Origin: a virus
Lineage: Duplodnaviria > Caudoviricetes
Strand: one strand, 5' to 3'
Length of the DNA: 64,000 bases
Virus record (IMG/VR): IMGVR_UViG_3300031673_000001
Below are positions 8,142 to 46,935 of the stretch, piece after piece. Both the position numbers and the translations under genes were made by a program. The notes beneath the pieces are model-generated. The model did not search any database and was not told the DNA's origin. It worked only from the letters and a program-made list of their open reading frames with translations. Within the stretch, counting starts at the first letter, position 1. Each line of letters opens with the position of its first letter.

Positions 8142-8221
8142 CGGAACGTAGCTCAGTCTGGTATTAGAGCGCGTGGTTTGGGTCCACGAAGTCGGAGGTT
8201 CGAATCCTCTCGTTCCGACCA
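8142..8221 (+). tRNA. tRNA-Pro(UGG)
   Basis: CGGAACG/CGTTCCG acceptor; CGTGG-TT TGG GT-CCACG; TTCGAAT; CCA. Confidence 0.95.
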
Positions 8222-8386: not shown

Positions 8387-8734
8387 ATGCGAAAAGATGA
8401 CAAGATGAAAGCATATATCAGTAAACATGTCTATCTATCCAACGCTCGTAAAAAATTAGATAGCAGCGGAAGATATTTAGTTCCTCCTGAAGAAGGAAGA
8501 ATATTAAGATGTGGTAATTTTATCAACCAGGGAATATTTAGAACCTTTACAAACAATAATATTGAATTATGGCAAGAGATTGAGATAGAAGCTCCATATG
8601 ATGAAGAAGAATCAATAAAGAAACTTGATGAAATAACAACTTGGAATCCAGGAAGAAAATTTGCAATTTGTAAAGTATTAATACATCAAATCAAAAAAGA
8701 TATAAAAAACAAAAAATTTGATAACCAATTTTAG
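8387..8734 (+). CDS. Hypothetical protein
   Basis: 115-aa ORF between tRNAs. Confidence 0.6.
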   Translation: MRKDDKMKAYISKHVYLSNARKKLDSSGRYLVPPEEGRILRCGNFINQGIFRTFTNNNIELWQEIEIEAPYDEEESIKKLDEITTWNPGRKFAICKVLIHQIKKDIKNKKFDNQF

Positions 8735-8736
8735 AT

Positions 8737-8823
8737 GCCACCGTCGCTTAGTGGACGATAGCGCTGGATTTGTAATCCAGAGATCCTTGATCCTCGTAGG
8801 TTCGAATCCTACCGGTGGCTCCA
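8737..8823 (+). tRNA. tRNA-Thr(UGU) with atypical long variable arm
   Basis: GCCACCG/CGGTGGC acceptor; CTGGA-TT TGT AA-TCCAG; 15-nt V region AGATCCTTGATCCTC; CCA. Confidence 0.88.
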
Positions 8824-9312: not shown

Positions 9313-9392
9313 GACCCTGTAGCTCAGTCCGGATTTAGAGCATCTGATTACGAATCAGAAAGTCGGAGGTTCAAATCCTCTCAGGGTCTCCA
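9313..9392 (+). tRNA. tRNA-Arg(ACG)
   Basis: TCTGA-TT ACG AA-TCAGA; CCA. Confidence 0.93.
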
Positions 9393-11620: not shown

Positions 11621-11709
11621 TGCGGGGTAGAGTAGTCCGGTCCAACTCGCTGGTCTCATAAGCCAGATCTCGAAAGAGAACGTGGGTTCAAATCCCACCC
11701 CCGCTACCA
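11621..11709 (+). tRNA. Initiator-type tRNA-Met(CAU) with long GAAA-capped variable arm
   Basis: U1-U72 mismatch, C3-G70, A11-U24; CTGGT-CT CAT AA-GCCAG; V arm TCTC-GAAA-GAGA; CCA. Confidence 0.88.
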
Positions 11710-17317: not shown

Positions 17318-17560
17318 ATGAAAAACCCATGTGACATATGCATTTGTAAGGTAATATGTACTGAAATATGTCCAGAAAAAGAAAACTATCTAACATTAAT
17401 TAAAAATGCTATTATCCAAAATTCTTATTCAAAAAGAGGAATTCGAATACCAAAAAATGATAATTTTAGAAAATATCTTGAAATGCAACAACAACATTTC
17501 AAAGATACAGCGAAAATCAATGTGAGAAATTATAAGAAGAGGGGAGGAATGATTTCATGA
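17318..17560 (+). CDS. PCxxC-family small protein
   Basis: NPCDICICKVICTEICP. Confidence 0.65.
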   Translation: MKNPCDICICKVICTEICPEKENYLTLIKNAIIQNSYSKRGIRIPKNDNFRKYLEMQQQHFKDTAKINVRNYKKRGGMIS

Positions 17561-18756
17561 TCCCGTATCAAGGAAAATATGGAAAAGCTTCTGTAATGCT
17601 TAACGAACTAAACGATCAGAATACTATTAGTCAGATATATGAATTTTTAAATCATCCAGCATTTACAAATCCAATTGCTATCATGCCAGATTGTCATTAT
17701 GGAAAGGGTGCTGTAATTGGATTTACAATGGAAATGACTGATATGATTATTCCAAATATAGTCGGGGTCGATATTAATTGTGGTATGCTTTCTCTATTTC
17801 TTGGACCCAATGCTTTAGAAAAATTAACTATCGAACAAATTGATCAGAAAATAAGACAAAAGATTCCCTTATCAAAACATGTCCATCAAGAAGTAACATT
17901 ATCTCATCATATGCTAGACAATTATTTTTGGAAACATGCAAGCTATAATCACAAACATTTTACCTTACAATATAATAAACGATATGGAACCAAATATGAT
18001 CCATTTAAATTTGATATTGATTGGTTTGAAGATAAATGCAAACAAATCAAAATGGATTTTACAAGAGCTTTATCATCTATTGGAACCTTGGGAGGCGGAA
18101 ACCATTTTTTAGAACTGGGTAAATTAGTCAATCGAAAAGAATACCTTTTCACAATCCATTCAGGATCAAGACAATTTGGATTGAAAGTTTGTGATTACTG
18201 GCAACGAAAAGCTGGAAAAGGTCATTTAGCATATTTGACCGGAGATGATATGTTTGGTTATCTTACAGATATGGTATTTACCCAAATATATGCACAAACA
18301 AATAGAGAAGCAATGGCAACGATCATTGAACGTATTTTTGATATTCAATCTTATAAGACGATTGAAACATGCCATAACTTTATAAGTATTCAAGATTTTA
18401 TTATTCGCAAAGGTGCAATAGCTTCTTATAAGGAACATCAGATGATCATTCCATTAAACATGGAAGATGGTTTATTAATATGTGAAGGAAAATCAAATCC
18501 AGAATGGAATTATTCAGCTCCCCACGGAGCAGGAAGAATTAGTTCAAGATCTAGTATTAAAAGAAAAATGAAAGAAAAATCATCCGCTGAAATTGTTCAA
18601 GAACGAATGAAAGAGAAAGGAATATACATATCAGTAGTTCCATTGGATGAAACAAAAGAAGCATATAAAGATCCAAAACTAATTGAAGATACTATTGACC
18701 CAACTGCATCAATTATTGATCGTGTAATGCCTGTGCTCAATATTAAAGCAATTTAA
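17557..18756 (+). CDS. rtcB: RNA 2',3'-cyclic-phosphate/3'-phosphate ligase RtcB
   Basis: MPDCHYGKG, GVDINCG, GTLGGGNHF, HSGSR, HN, RKGA, SAPHGAGR, EAYKD. Confidence 0.95.
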   Translation: MIPYQGKYGKASVMLNELNDQNTISQIYEFLNHPAFTNPIAIMPDCHYGKGAVIGFTMEMTDMIIPNIVGVDINCGMLSLFLGPNALEKLTIEQIDQKIRQKIPLSKHVHQEVTLSHHMLDNYFWKHASYNHKHFTLQYNKRYGTKYDPFKFDIDWFEDKCKQIKMDFTRALSSIGTLGGGNHFLELGKLVNRKEYLFTIHSGSRQFGLKVCDYWQRKAGKGHLAYLTGDDMFGYLTDMVFTQIYAQTNREAMATIIERIFDIQSYKTIETCHNFISIQDFIIRKGAIASYKEHQMIIPLNMEDGLLICEGKSNPEWNYSAPHGAGRISSRSSIKRKMKEKSSAEIVQERMKEKGIYISVVPLDETKEAYKDPKLIEDTIDPTASIIDRVMPVLNIKAI

Positions 18757-19203: not shown

Positions 19204-19232
19204 CAAATTTGCTTATACAAAGGAGAATAGCT

Positions 19233-19370
19233 ATGAATGATAAAGCTGTAAATCTAATTCATTAGGTTTACACCAATCCACCGTAGAGTTGTAGAGGTCC
19301 CCCCAGTTGTTTTCATTCAAATAATAACTTTAACTTTGAACTGAAAACAAAAAGGGGAATAAAACAATGA
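19233..19370 (+). promoter_or_regulatory. Leader ORF with two in-frame UAG codons and an SD-sequestering hairpin
   Basis: SD AGGAG, ATG 19233; MNDKAVNLIH*(TAG 19263)VYTNPP*(TAG 19284)SCRGPPSCFHSNNNFNFELKTKRGIKQ-TGA 19368-70 overlapping ATG 19367. Confidence 0.65.
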
Positions 19371-19738
19371 CACGAAAAGAATTGAAGAATAAAATAAAAG
19401 AAGAACAAAAATTATTAGCAATCAAAATTAAAAGAGGAAAGTTTCTTAATAAACCTAGTCATAGAGAAAATATGACTGAGGAAGAAAAAGAATTCTATAT
19501 CTCAATTTATGATGGAATATCACATTTCAAAGATTGGAAAGTTGGACAATTAAGTCATGAGTATCGTCATAAACATATCATCTATTGTCAAATGTTTAAC
19601 AATACTCCTTATGAAAAAATTGAACACCCAAGAGTCAGTAATAAACCCACTCCCCAACATCTAAAACTTTATAAAGAACGATGGGAAGTGATACTTTGGG
19701 AAGCACAACGTGATGAAGCTTTACATAATAATACGTAA
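19367..19738 (+). CDS. Conserved phage hypothetical protein upstream of Pth2
   Basis: 123 aa; ..EYRHKHIIYCQM...PYEKIE..; overlaps the Pth2 start. Confidence 0.7.
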   Translation: MTRKELKNKIKEEQKLLAIKIKRGKFLNKPSHRENMTEEEKEFYISIYDGISHFKDWKVGQLSHEYRHKHIIYCQMFNNTPYEKIEHPRVSNKPTPQHLKLYKERWEVILWEAQRDEALHNNT

Positions 19739-20286: not shown

Positions 20287-20364
20287 GGTCCAGTAGCTCC
20301 AGTGGTTAGAGCAGGAAACTCTAAATTTCCGTTTGCGAGGGTTCGAATCCCTCCTGGACCACCA
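20287..20364 (+). tRNA. Amber suppressor tRNA (anticodon CUA)
   Basis: GGTCCAG/CTGGACC acceptor; GCTC/GAGC D stem; GGAAA-CT CTA AA-TTTCC; GAGGG-TTCGAAT-CCCTC; A73-CCA. Fully canonical fold. Confidence 0.92.
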
Positions 20365-21620: not shown

Positions 21621-22994
21621 ATGTTCATCCCCAACAACATAAATCTTCTATATATAGAAGATGATGAGGAAAATGCAAATCTTATTCTGTCATTTTTAAA
21701 ATTATCTGAATATACAAAATTTAATACAACTCATAAAAGTACATTAGAACAAGGTTTAGACTATATTACAGATAACTGTATTTCTACTTGTAATAACACT
21801 TGTAAAACTCAAAATATTGAAAACTGTGGAACAGATGTTATTTTATTAGATCTAGTTTTACAAAATAGTCGAGGAGTTGATACATATAAATCAGTTTTAG
21901 AAAAATGCCCCTGTATTCCAATTGTTATCATATCTGGATATGAACAAATGGCATATGAATGTGTTAAACTAGGAGCTCAAGACTATTTAGTAAAACCCCA
22001 TATTAATCCAGGTTTAATTATCAGATCATTGGTATATGCAATTGAAAGAAATAATCTAGAAAACTCAAAAATACAAGCTGAAAAGAAATTTAGAGAAGTT
22101 ATTTATGCAACTCCAATTGGTTTTCATAATTATGAACTAAAAGAAGAAGATCTAATATTTATAGGTTATAATCCAGCAGCAGATCGAATACTAAAAATTG
22201 ATCATAAACAATTATTAGGAAAAACAATTGATCAAGCATTTCCCTCTCTAACTAAAATGAAAATTCCTGAAAAATATAAAATAGTTGCAAAAACAGGCAA
22301 ACCATGGGAATCACAAATTTTAGAATACGAAGACCATAATATTAAAAAAGCTTATTTTAAAATACATGCATTTAGAACATACCCTGGTTCTATAACCTCT
22401 TCATTTGAGGATATTACAGAGCAAATAATAGCAACAGAAAAACTAGAATATAGTGAAAAAAGATTTAGAAACCTAGTTGAAATAACAGGTGCAGGAATAT
22501 ATGAAATAGATCTCACTAATGGAAAATTTACTTATGTAAATCATGTTATGTGTAAACAAACTGGATATACTAAAGAAGAACTTTTTGAAATTGGACCTTC
22601 TGGACTTTTAACTCAAAAAAGCTATCTTGACTGGGTTGATAGATGGGAAAGATTTACTGATCCAGAATATATTAATGGAGGAGCTTATGATGGTCCATTT
22701 CAATATGAAGCTATTGCAAAAGATGGTTCTCATCTTTGGTCATTAGTTATAGCAGAATTTGTAATGGATAAAAATAAAAATATAACCAAAGCAAATGTTG
22801 TTGCTATTGATATAACGAAACAAAAATTAATAGAATCTCAATTAAAGAAAAAAGAAGATATTATATTCAATCAATTAGAAGATAAAATACATCAATGGAG
22901 GGATGAAATAACCGAAAGATCTTCAGTTGAATTTCAAAAATTAAAAGACATGGACAATAAAATAATATCCATTAGTAATCAAATTGTGGAGTAA
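21621..22994 (+). CDS. Receiver (REC)-PAS-PAS protein with no kinase or output domain
   Basis: YIEDD, LLDL (phosphoacceptor Asp), IISG, AQDYLVKP; two PAS repeats (IGYNPAADRIL; TYVNHVMCKQTGYTKEEL). Confidence 0.85.
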   Translation: MFIPNNINLLYIEDDEENANLILSFLKLSEYTKFNTTHKSTLEQGLDYITDNCISTCNNTCKTQNIENCGTDVILLDLVLQNSRGVDTYKSVLEKCPCIPIVIISGYEQMAYECVKLGAQDYLVKPHINPGLIIRSLVYAIERNNLENSKIQAEKKFREVIYATPIGFHNYELKEEDLIFIGYNPAADRILKIDHKQLLGKTIDQAFPSLTKMKIPEKYKIVAKTGKPWESQILEYEDHNIKKAYFKIHAFRTYPGSITSSFEDITEQIIATEKLEYSEKRFRNLVEITGAGIYEIDLTNGKFTYVNHVMCKQTGYTKEELFEIGPSGLLTQKSYLDWVDRWERFTDPEYINGGAYDGPFQYEAIAKDGSHLWSLVIAEFVMDKNKNITKANVVAIDITKQKLIESQLKKKEDIIFNQLEDKIHQWRDEITERSSVEFQKLKDMDNKIISISNQIVE

Positions 22995-27028: not shown

Positions 27029-27111
27029 GCGGACGTCGTCCAAGTGGTAGGACACTAGATTTCCAATCTGGCGCTTCGGCATTGCAGGTTCAAATCCTGT
27101 CGTCCGCTCCA
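27029..27111 (+). tRNA. tRNA-Gly(UCC) with extra UUCG variable arm
   Basis: GCGGACG/CGTCCGC acceptor, U73; CTAGA-TT TCC AA-TCTGG; 12-nt V region CGCTTCGGCATT. Confidence 0.9.
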
Positions 27112-30464: not shown

Positions 30465-30752
30465 TTACCAAGTTCCTTTCGCCTGTCTCTTCTTCCTTTC
30501 CATAGATAATTCAAGTCTTAATTTTGTAATACAAGTGTGCTTGATCTTGCCAGTTCTAAATCCAGTTCCTGTTAGATAGTTCATTACCACTCTTATCTTA
30601 TCATTAGATGTGCTAGATATGGGACCCAAATACTTTCTCAATCGAGCACAACACCATTCAGGATCCTCTTTCCATTTTCCTAAAAGACTCTTACGAACAG
30701 CTTGCCACTCTGGACTTTTAACCAATACATTTTTTGGATTTTCATCACTCAT
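30465..30752 (-). CDS. Hypothetical protein
   Basis: 95 aa, SD AGGAG. Confidence 0.7.
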   Translation of the reverse strand: MSDENPKNVLVKSPEWQAVRKSLLGKWKEDPEWCCARLRKYLGPISSTSNDKIRVVMNYLTGTGFRTGKIKHTCITKLRLELSMERKKRQAKGTW

Positions 30753-30761
30753 TATTATCTC

Positions 30762-31352
30762 CTATACAGTTACTCTCTTAAACCATCCCCTTGCATATTT
30801 TTTTTGCTTTGAATTACCATCCATATAATCCATATAATGTTGTCCTTGAAGTGTATTAAGCATTTTAACTAATACTTTTTCATCCCCACCTTTTTCACTA
30901 AGAGAATTAAGTGCGCTCAATGTTTTTTTACCAATTTTTCCATCCACCTCAAGTTCATCAAATAACTCACCATTTCTGTTCAGATAATTTAATGACCTTT
31001 GTAAGAATTTAGCAGCTCTAAGAACACCCAAATTTACACCAGTATCAAACATTTCTTCTGCTACTTCTTGTGAAAATTCATCAAGACAATTTATGTTCCA
31101 ATATTTATCTTTAAAAAAACTTGCAACTTCATTTTTAAGTCTAAGTGAATCATCTAAACTCTTTGGAAAATAAGGATCATATCTATGAAAATCAATAATT
31201 TCCCATCCATACCAATCAGGATTAAATTTTCTTGAAATTCCTTTATATGTTTCTCCTCCTGCATCATCCATATCATTTACATAACCACCTTCATTAATCA
31301 TTGTTTTTTCAAAAGCATCAATAAAACTCGACTTACAAATAGCGCTTTCCAT
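30762..31352 (-). CDS. GH108 lysozyme with peptidoglycan-binding domain (endolysin)
   Basis: NEGGYVNDMDDAGGETYKGIS; FDTGVNLG; LQRSLN; VDGKIGKKTL; GWFKR. Confidence 0.92.
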   Translation of the reverse strand: MESAICKSSFIDAFEKTMINEGGYVNDMDDAGGETYKGISRKFNPDWYGWEIIDFHRYDPYFPKSLDDSLRLKNEVASFFKDKYWNINCLDEFSQEVAEEMFDTGVNLGVLRAAKFLQRSLNYLNRNGELFDELEVDGKIGKKTLSALNSLSEKGGDEKVLVKMLNTLQGQHYMDYMDGNSKQKKYARGWFKRVTV

Positions 31353-45702: not shown

Positions 45703-46935
45703 CTATTTCCTTTTATAACTCTTAAAAAAAGATTTTTTATTCCTATGCATTTTAAGAATAGATTGTTTATGATAAGATAAAACTGATTTGCTTTTATCTA
45801 TCAAATCATTCTCAACACAATAGTTATATAACTTCGTGCCAGGAAATGGATAGAACCATGTTACTTGAACAAAATCCGGTTCAATTTCTTTATTAAAATC
45901 AGAAGTTATTTTTGTTAATTGATCATCATTATCAAATGGCCACCCTATCATATTGAATGAGATAGTATCTATATTAGCTTTTTTCAACAATTTAAAAGAT
46001 TTTCTTATTTGATCATTAGACATAAATCTATTAAGATATTTTCGTCTAAATTTCTCATCACCACATTCTATTCCCATTGCTACGACTTTACAACCAGTTC
46101 TTTTAAGAAGATCTACCATTTCTTCATTGATACATTCAACTCTACTCATGCATCCATATGGAATATTTAATTCTCTTTTCAATGATGTAAACAAATCTCT
46201 AACATAATTCATATTAGACAACACCGTATCATCACCAAAATGAAATCTTTTGAACTTATAATCATTTCTTAAATCTCCAAGTTCATCAATAACATCTTTT
46301 ACAGGTCGATATCTAACATAATCTTTACCATACATCTTTAAAAAAGTTGAGTTACAGCAGTAAGTGCATGAATATGGACATCCCCTTGTAGCTGTTACAT
46401 TCAAACTACCATTTGGATTAACAACTCTTTTGAATAATTTCCATGGAAATCTCGGAATCTTTGATAAATCCTCTGGTGGTCGTATAGGATTAGAATAAAC
46501 TTTTCCATCCTTCATATAAGCTAAATTCTCTATTTCAAATAGACTATCTTTACCATAATTATCTAAAAAATCTTTAATAAAACTTTCGCCCTCTCCTATA
46601 CACAAATAATCAATGTTTCTATTATCTTTTAAAAGTTCAGGACCAGCTACAGTAGGATGAACCCCACCCATCAAAACAGGAATATTTTTAGCATCTTTGA
46701 TATTTTTTATTAAAATACAAGCATCCAAGTATAATGTAGTAGTAGTAGATATCATAACAATGTCAACATTTTCTTTAACTAATATTTCAGGAAGTTTAGT
46801 GTATTTAGAATCCGTAGAGGGATTCATCATACAATAAAACAATAACTCATGTTCTCGTGGTATAGATGCAGCTACATAACCTGCTCCTCTGACTGGGGCA
46901 CCTTTTGGATCCATTGATACAAAAGCTATTTTCAT
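45703..46935 (-). CDS. B12-binding radical SAM enzyme (class B methyltransferase-like)
   Basis: GGVHPT, GEGE, RGCPYSCTYC, DD, GIECG, MIGWP. Confidence 0.9.
   Translation of the reverse strand: MKIAFVSMDPKGAPVRGAGYVAASIPREHELLFYCMMNPSTDSKYTKLPEILVKENVDIVMISTTTTLYLDACILIKNIKDAKNIPVLMGGVHPTVAGPELLKDNRNIDYLCIGEGESFIKDFLDNYGKDSLFEIENLAYMKDGKVYSNPIRPPEDLSKIPRFPWKLFKRVVNPNGSLNVTATRGCPYSCTYCCNSTFLKMYGKDYVRYRPVKDVIDELGDLRNDYKFKRFHFGDDTVLSNMNYVRDLFTSLKRELNIPYGCMSRVECINEEMVDLLKRTGCKVVAMGIECGDEKFRRKYLNRFMSNDQIRKSFKLLKKANIDTISFNMIGWPFDNDDQLTKITSDFNKEIEPDFVQVTWFYPFPGTKLYNYCVENDLIDKSKSVLSYHKQSILKMHRNKKSFFKSYKRK

Follow-up and report, generated by a model that had tools for sequence, protein, structure and literature searches.

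Background

Suppressor transfer RNAs (tRNAs) are on record in several jumbo phages that use the standard genetic code, namely Xanthomonas phage XacN1, Pectobacterium phage CBB, Yersinia phage fHe-Yen9-04, Acinetobacter phage ME3 and Agrobacterium phage Atu_ph07. The purpose of these tRNAs is an acknowledged gap, and the authors of the XacN1 study looked for a target and found none (PMC5852040). Here we analyse a further case, a tRNA gene with the amber-reading anticodon CUA, tRNA(CUA), in a stretch of 64,000 nucleotides (nt) from the IMG/VR virus record IMGVR_UViG_3300031673_000001 (Duplodnaviria; Caudoviricetes); this whole stretch is called the window below. A bare suppressor tRNA in a standard-code jumbo phage is already known, and what is added here is a concrete candidate target in the tRNA's own gene cassette. 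The predicted genes of this cassette are a leader open reading frame (ORF), a gene that we call A, a gene for a protein resembling the peptidyl-tRNA hydrolase Pth2, a small ORF and tRNA(CUA), in that order, and they form a conserved operon closed by the tRNA. We propose, with a probability of roughly 0.55, that tRNA(CUA) is a working amber suppressor within a self-gated translational switch, in which the cassette holds its own UAG codons. Full-text literature searches turned up no publication in which a suppressor tRNA is connected with a Pth2-like gene and an in-frame stop.

A leader with two in-frame UAG codons

The leader reads M-N-D-K-A-V-N-L-I-H-UAG-V-Y-T-N-P-P-UAG-S-C-R-G-P-P-... and starts 134 nt upstream of gene A, and its UGA stop (19368-19370) shares the sequence ATGA with the start codon of gene A. 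The closest relative, whose Pth2-like protein is 88% identical, has the same leader ORF with many substitutions, both UAGs at the same codons and the same overlap. The core of the leader (..UAG, 4-6 residues, P-P-UAG, 2-4 residues, R-G-P-P) is kept in at least nine relatives (L177, L178, L179, L180, L056, L104, L105, L107 and L112), and its codons vary synonymously, with Arg written as AGA, AGG, CGT or CGG, Gly as GGT or GGA, and Pro as CCN. This synonymous turnover argues for selection on the peptide behind the UAGs and not on an RNA or DNA motif, and a conserved peptide behind two UAGs suggests in turn that the UAGs are read through and the stretch translated in this clade. The apparently translated sequence behind the leader UAGs is the best available evidence that tRNA(CUA) of the window works as a suppressor. 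The window (64 kb) and the 223-kb genome of the relative G002 each contain a single copy of the motif, which is in this leader in both cases. In total, 51 kb of sequence upstream of the cassette yielded 12 occurrences and 803 kb elsewhere yielded 7, an enrichment of about 27-fold (600 nt upstream). A different leader is present in the relative G001 (L042:18152-18208): it opens with ATG-ACA-TAG behind a Shine-Dalgarno (SD) sequence, has another TAG after seven further codons, ends 30 nt short of gene A and lacks the PP/RGPP peptide.

UAG codons inside the Pth2-like genes of relatives

A search of IMG/VR with an alignment of the Pth2-like protein gave 81 loci, which correspond to 72 clusters after dereplication at about 90% identity. 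One internal stop is present in 14 of the 81 Pth2-like ORFs, and it is TAG each time, never TGA or TAA. It mostly falls in one loop, ahead of a conserved Trp, and the family motifs EPD and TAxA continue behind it. A further set of these ORFs opens with M-x-TAG, placing the UAG at codon 3-4. Counted by cluster, an in-frame stop occurs in 21 of 72, again always as TAG, and the residue aligned to it in other family members is variable. Gene A has an in-frame TAG in one case. An example from a cultured phage is Acinetobacter phage ME3, in which ATG-ACT-TAG opens the Pth2-like frame, the annotation starts at a later GTG, and a tRNA(CUA) lies about 410 nt upstream. Three phages with TAG in the Pth2-like gene use the standard code over 234, 100 (of 100.3) and 129 kb, with densities of 0.96, 0.94 and 0.91 under code 11 and with TAG ending 60 of 324, 22 of 142 and 34 of 176 genes, respectively.

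In an all-against-all read-through screen of about 1 Mb, homology supported an in-frame TAG in the Pth2-like gene only; controls with TGA and TAA returned three and six junction artefacts, respectively. The screen was filtered for true frame, which removed the many off-frame alignments between conserved genes. Co-variation of stop and anticodon was examined in five loci with UCA or UUA tRNAs: L064 and L161 each carry a TGA in frame, 5-7 codons upstream and with an ATG after it, and L133, L151 and Lak-A1 have none.

Linkage of the Pth2-like gene and the suppressor tRNA

A tRNA(CUA) lies within 2.5 kb of the Pth2-like gene in 61 of the 81 loci, and a suppressor tRNA of any kind in 66; those other than CUA are two UCA, two UUA and one with its anticodon read as 'ctaa'. 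After dereplication the counts are 55 and 60 of the 72 clusters, respectively. CUA accounts for 70 of the 136 tRNA and transfer-messenger RNA (tmRNA) genes of the 81 loci. The tRNA is downstream on the same strand in 52 loci, with a median gap of 226 nt; the corresponding distance in the window, from the end of the Pth2-like gene, is 283 nt. In G001, the Pth2-like homologue (56% identical) ends 9 nt before tRNA(CUA) and is preceded by a gene A homologue, and the order of the tRNA array differs. Adjacency of a Pth2-like gene to the suppressor tRNAs of XacN1, CBB and Yen9-04 was also considered, and it does not hold within 1.5 kb.

Several other small RNA genes lie near these loci. ARAGORN predicts tRNAs with 8-nt anticodon loops beside the Pth2-like gene (L063:2038-2121, L065:1776-1852, L066:2324-2399 and L128:3270-), with anticodons taaa, gaaa, gcaa and ctaa, which could be of the frameshift-suppressor type or misfolded predictions. 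In three loci (L056:3783-4168, L103:4554- and L119:856-) the cassette has a phage tmRNA gene no more than 2 kb away; another is found in G001, and the tag of G002 is ADDYYTDFAKAA. In the TAG-recoded Prevotella phage Lak-A1, a tRNA with the ochre-type anticodon UUA (L176:1733-1805) lies about 700 nt upstream of the Pth2-like gene.

The Pth2-like protein, gene A and the cassette layout

The Pth2-like protein of the window matches Pfam PF01981 marginally (23.1 bits, with a cut-off of 23.0), and the profile of its family matches solved Pth2 structures (E 4e-5). There are 278 homologues, some or many of them with a precomputed PF01981 assignment. The protein modelled with AlphaFold2 was the fused relative L060 and not that of the window, and the model has a predicted local distance difference test score of 93. 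Its N-terminal half, corresponding to gene A, is helical. For its C-terminal half, the best 13 Foldseek matches in the PDB are all Pth2 (probability 0.99-1.0; template modelling score about 0.6 by target). The equivalents of Asp (in EPD) and Thr (in TAxA) are invariant in the family, and the position of the canonical Pth2 Lys is Q or R. Pth2-type enzymes recycle dropped-off peptidyl-tRNA.

Gene A has no family match in Pfam or PHROG. It is 30% identical to its counterpart in G001, is the immediate upstream neighbour of the Pth2-like gene in about 45 loci, and forms a fusion with it in about 14. In some phages the Pth2-like domain is fused not to A but to a domain with the motif HDxGKP...HFPNHA: Stenotrophomonas phage RAS14 (L175:2015-2800), Tenacibaculum phage pT24 (L174:2501-3400), L172:1952-2797, and L182 and L183 (XacN1 ORF364 and Xoo-sp13_327). 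We take this domain to resemble the HD domain of CCA-adding enzymes, which would point to work at the 3' end of tRNA. In RAS14 and pT24 no suppressor tRNA lies within 2.5 kb of the fusion (in XacN1 and Xoo-sp13 the sequence covered extends 600 nt to either side), and the HD-type fusions have no in-frame TAG. The coordinates of the cassette and of two other genes of the window are given in Table 1.

Table 1. Features of the cassette and selected genes of the window
Feature	Position	Strand	Basis and remarks
Shine-Dalgarno sequence of the leader, AAGGAG	19220-19225	+	7 nt before ATG 19233; sequence read
Leader ORF, 45 codons	19233-19370	+	In-frame UAGs at 19263-19265 and 19284-19286; sequence read
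Gene A, 123 amino acids (aa)	19367-19738	+	Basic N-terminal helix; conserved (F/Y)RHxH(I/V)AYC motif
Pth2-like gene, 96-97 aa	19710-20003	+	Pfam PF01981, family profile, fold
Small ORF between Pth2-like gene and tRNA, 92 aa	20000-20278	+	Present in closest relatives; absent in G001
tRNA(CUA), predicted amber suppressor	20287-20364	+	ARAGORN, Rfam, fold; anticodon 20321-20323
RtcB RNA ligase, upstream neighbour (context only)	17557-18756	+	PHROG 1075 at E 4e-100; Pfam RtcB
Endolysin, GH108 + PG_binding_3	30762-31352	-	Domain matches; no internal TAG

The amber suppressor tRNA

A preliminary description of the window, made from the sequence alone, had reported an intact amber suppressor tRNA with perfect stems, A73 and an encoded CCA, and this is borne out. 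The gene is called by ARAGORN and scores 57.3 bits against Rfam RF00005 (cut-off 29), and its minimum-energy fold is a clean cloverleaf (z = -2.5) with stems of 7 base pairs (bp; acceptor), 4 bp (D), 5 bp (anticodon) and 5 bp (T). The 7-nt anticodon loop is CUCUAAA, with U33 and a purine at position 37. The tRNA belongs to class I and is number 13 among 25 tRNA genes called by ARAGORN between 8142 and 30125, all on the plus strand. Two more assemblies, made independently from different samples (ENA ERZ27256810 and Logan ERR5010714), contain an identical 78-base gene, so an assembly error in the anticodon is unlikely. An exact-match search of IMG/VR with the tRNA gave no match, and a search with RtcB as bait also gave none. 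The tRNA is 74-76% identical to the suppressors of XacN1, CBB and Yen9-04; no tRNA within its array is as close, the nearest there being those for Lys and Glu (71% identity).

Among 39 aligned cassette tRNAs, 18 of 20 stem pairs show compensatory changes, and the anticodon CUA and the loop CUCUAAA are fixed; the stems are wholly divergent and the cloverleaf is kept. The same loop is found in 46 of 65 unique tRNAs of the family. By these comparisons tRNA(CUA) is a genuine gene under selection, with a predicted function as a suppressor. U35 and A73 had been put forward as charging marks, and the alignment speaks against the latter as a conserved identity mark: N73 across the family is A in 15, G in 13, U in 11 and C in 2, and it is U in the closest relative. 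The idea that tRNA(CUA) makes up for the absence of a Tyr or Trp tRNA in the window is dismissed, as G001 has Tyr, Trp and Val tRNAs in addition to CUA.

Genetic code of the phage and its relatives

The same phage is represented by a 234.6-kb contig, ENA ERZ27256834, on which gene calls place an intact portal protein (654 aa), prohead protease and Gp23 directly upstream of the window. These T4-type calls identify the source as an uncultured T4-like jumbo phage. Genes in the window include those for a family-B DNA polymerase and RtcB, deazaguanine genes and a glycan cluster. The code was judged on the window, the remainder of the contig being known from gene calls only. The window has a coding density of 92% under code 11, and TAG ends 19 of about 105 genes, including those ending at 8734, 20865, 24480 and 24928 and, on the minus strand, at 45703, which agrees with the earlier view of a standard-code phage with several TAG-ended genes. 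The endolysin (Table 1) was likewise correctly described as free of in-frame TAG. The preliminary description had proposed a comparison of codes 11 and 15, and this shows no real gain in the window (0.917, and 0.944 with TAG as sense) or in five relatives; the gain does not exceed that of a control with TGA as sense, run in the relatives.

The relatives G001 (244.5 kb; DNA polymerase 53% identical) and G002 have the standard code over their full length. TAG ends 69 of 329 genes in the former and 26 of 275 in the latter, and each has its own tRNA(CUA). Like the window, the contigs of G001, G002, G005, G006 and G008 do not show the marks of code-15 recoding (many genes with in-frame TAG, a gain in density and a rare TAG stop). 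Since the window and the relatives are standard-code, ordinary TAG recoding is, as far as the data reach, not the explanation of the tRNA; TAG is still a common stop, and we reject recoding for the window and these five relatives' contigs. The expectation that suppressor tRNAs usually accompany UAG recoding holds in part: they do so in recoded phages, and standard-code cases are on record in XacN1, CBB, fHe-Yen9-04, ME3 and Atu_ph07. The genomes are low in G+C content (0.30). No release factor was found in the five relatives' contigs, and no Gln/Glu-type aminoacyl-tRNA synthetase in G001, G002, G005 or G008. A 307-aa fragment of a synthetase of the glutamyl/glutaminyl class is encoded in G006 (G006:C1:35912-36766), whose Pth2-like gene has two in-frame TAGs.

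Regulated C-terminal extension, another of the earlier suggestions, is not supported by conserved extensions behind TAG or by an excess of back-up stops. The window has three junctions with TAG in frame (5813, 12029 and 30762); the genes on either side are separate, with ribosome-binding sites of their own, and in relatives the counterparts of these junctions are out of frame or not TAG. No enrichment of back-up stops behind TAG was found, and in-frame extensions of TAG-ended genes are somewhat longer (p = 0.015), which we ascribe to chance in-frame neighbours. Four candidates for read-through were rejected individually. For the 5813/5797 extension, the G001 homologue is just about 20 aa longer and ends in TAA; the proposed QueE/S21 fusion has a TAA-TGA junction in this phage; and the fusion at 90824 of G002 corresponds to two genes in different frames in G001. 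The fourth is the TAG-ended endolysin, which is in frame with the next ORF of 95 aa, three codons on (30465-31352, minus strand); this match is treated as chance because the G002 homologue ends differently.

Other genes of the array and its surroundings

A response-regulator receiver and PAS protein of 457 aa (21621-22994, plus strand) is encoded within the tRNA array, 1.3 kb downstream of tRNA(CUA), and is kept in close relatives. A length of 80-90 nt is common among tRNAs of the array that are not specific for Leu, Ser or Tyr, for example those for Thr (87 nt), Met (89 nt) and Gly (83 nt); in G001 the same is seen for Lys (88 nt) and Cys (86 nt). The long tRNAs of the window (8142-8221, 8737-8823, 9313-9392, 11621-11709 and 27029-27111) have extra arms or insertions, and RtcB is encoded in the same array. 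About 0.4-1.1 kb before the start of the window, gene calls identify homologues of S21 and Cpn10 (GroES) beside a radical-SAM QueE-like gene (L032:13989-14658).

Proposed mechanism

As far as the data reach, UAG acts as a normal stop elsewhere in the phage, and the cassette alone carries it in frame, twice in the short leader in this clade and, in other clades, at codon 3-4 or in a loop of the Pth2-like ORF. Ribosomes would reach the stretch behind the leader UAGs only if tRNA(CUA) is made, is charged and outcompetes release factor 1 (RF1). That stretch is proline-rich and arrest-like, and its stop overlaps the start of gene A. PP-stop and RGPP resemble termination-slowing and arrest contexts. 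Read-through of the leader could thus be passed on to gene A by coupling at ATGA or by the arrival of ribosomes at the arrest-like proline motif. Because two UAGs must be passed, the output of A and the Pth2-like protein would track suppressor activity, roughly as its square. The Pth2-like enzyme, together with the basic helical A, most likely cuts an ester bond on acylated tRNA. The loop may be a negative feedback that caps suppression, like that of RF2, or a feed-forward clean-up proportional to read-through. A role in regulation, raised in the preliminary description, is favoured; the target proposed here, the tRNA's own operon, was not part of it.

Several observations weigh against this proposal. 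About one quarter of the Pth2-like loci have no tRNA(CUA) within 2.5 kb, and the cultured phages XacN1 and Xoo-sp13 carry a fused, ungated Pth2-like form about 200 kb from their suppressor tRNAs. The ATGA overlap is kept only in the closest relative, the other leaders stopping 30-80 nt short of gene A. RNAalifold, run on a small sample of seven leaders, detected no conserved RNA structure (-0.17 kcal/mol, no covarying pair), and hairpins masking the SD sequence were discarded for want of covariation. The Pth2-like ORF of the window has no in-frame TAG, its nearest in-frame upstream stop being TGA, and gating in this phage would therefore have to come from the leader. A strong suppressor would be costly, since TAG ends 18-21% of the phage's own genes and back-up stops are not enriched. 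The read-through screen covers only genes common to the fetched genomes. Finally, the chemistry of the Pth2-like protein may differ from that of Pth2, because the canonical lysine aligns with Q or R.

As a wider and more tentative extension, which we regard as possible and rather doubtful, the cassette would be a portable translational sensor and homeostat. Competition of tRNA(CUA) with RF1 on the leader with its two UAGs and RGPP would set the level of a two-part tRNA-ester hydrolase, which would attack the acylated suppressor or dropped-off peptidyl-tRNA and thereby reset the system. Such a circuit would parallel RF2 autoregulation with a tRNA as its basis, in many lineages of giant phages, and would give the 'orphan' suppressor tRNAs their purpose.

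Alternative explanations

The tRNA could also be a general suppressor for host takeover, which reads UAGs of the host or of rival phages and so yields extended proteins and stalled ribosomes, with A and the Pth2-like protein serving for control or clean-up. This explanation is compatible with the self-gated switch. The loop CUCUAAA is the context of efficient amber suppressors, and its retention in 46 of the 65 unique tRNAs agrees with such a role, as do the tmRNA genes beside the cassette in L056, L103 and L119, the nearby RtcB and the general function of Pth2-type enzymes in recycling dropped-off peptidyl-tRNA. A takeover function is nevertheless unlikely as the explanation, because the phage's own genes are TAG-ended in 18-21% of cases without a signature of back-up stops, and because it leaves the retention of UAG inside the cassette unexplained.

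A second alternative is that the cassette represents a first step to TAG recoding, with TAG drifting in neutrally and the Pth2-like gene affected first. A preprint (Borges/Peters model; 10.1101/2021.08.26.457843) describes suppressor tRNAs in phages that use the standard code and are related to recoded ones, and puts forward such a path; the low G+C content (0.30) and the presence of the Pth2-like family in TAG-recoded Lak phages are in line with it. However, TAG is not depleted as a stop (18-21%), no other supported in-frame TAG gene was found in about 1 Mb, distant lineages have their TAGs at the same few sites (codon 3-4, one loop and the leader), and the leader peptide is under purifying selection, all of which make neutral drift quite improbable.

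It is also very unlikely that tRNA(CUA), whose charging is putative, is no decoder in vivo and is instead a relic, or a decoy or substrate either of the A/Pth2 enzyme or of an anticodon nuclease of the host, the leader UAGs being ordinary stops of small ORFs. In favour of this reading, RtcB and the many odd tRNAs of the array suggest a tRNA damage-and-repair arms race. Against it, translatable sequence is conserved behind the UAGs both in relatives' Pth2-like ORFs (EPD, TAxA) and in the leader (synonymous turnover), and the stems co-vary around an anticodon and loop that hardly change.

Comparison with known systems

If the self-gated switch is true, suppressor tRNAs that were recorded for years without a target gain a testable circuit, in which genes are made only while a stop is overridden. 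A tRNA-gated switch would join the short list of natural stop-codon control loops, beside RF2, and a recurrent feature of the tRNA arrays of jumbo phages would be explained. Many annotations would be corrected, as Pth2-like genes are cut at the TAG or begun at a later codon, as in ME3. The cassette would also be usable as a small natural component where gene control is to depend on amber suppression, and it bears on how full TAG recoding could start.

The Pth2-like protein shares with archaeal and eukaryotic Pth2 (PF01981; PDB 2zv3, 1q7s, 1xty, 3erj and 1wn2) the fold, the helix-1 motif (AVQAxHA compared with AAQxxHA) and an acidic/Thr motif near the C-terminus. In contrast to these enzymes, the phage protein is about 20 residues shorter, has Q or R at the Lys position, and has a dedicated helical partner A, often fused to it, or an HD-type domain in some phages. 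The leader resembles leader and arrest peptides such as SecM, TnaC and ErmCL in being a short upstream ORF with its own SD sequence and a conserved proline-rich peptide (PP-stop, RGPP). The signal here would be the passing of two UAGs instead of secretion or a small molecule, SD masking by a conserved structure was not seen, and arrest is putative.

In prfB, which encodes RF2, a gene for decoding or termination likewise carries the very stop at issue (UGA), and its synthesis reports that activity. Whereas prfB uses a +1 frameshift and has no tRNA of its own, suppression here would be exerted by a co-encoded tRNA. Recoded phages of code 15 (crAss-like and Lak; preprint 10.1101/2021.08.26.457843) also have a phage tRNA(CUA) that reads UAG, with read-through proposed to set the timing of expression, and Lak has the Pth2-like family. 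In the phage analysed here, UAG ends about one fifth of the genes, and in-frame UAG is confined to one cassette and not spread across late genes. The phage also resembles XacN1, CBB, fHe-Yen9-04, ME3 and Atu_ph07, which have a tRNA(CUA) (UCA in Atu_ph07) in a large phage that keeps the corresponding stop as a stop. Compared with the literature on those phages, here a candidate target is visible in the tRNA's own operon.
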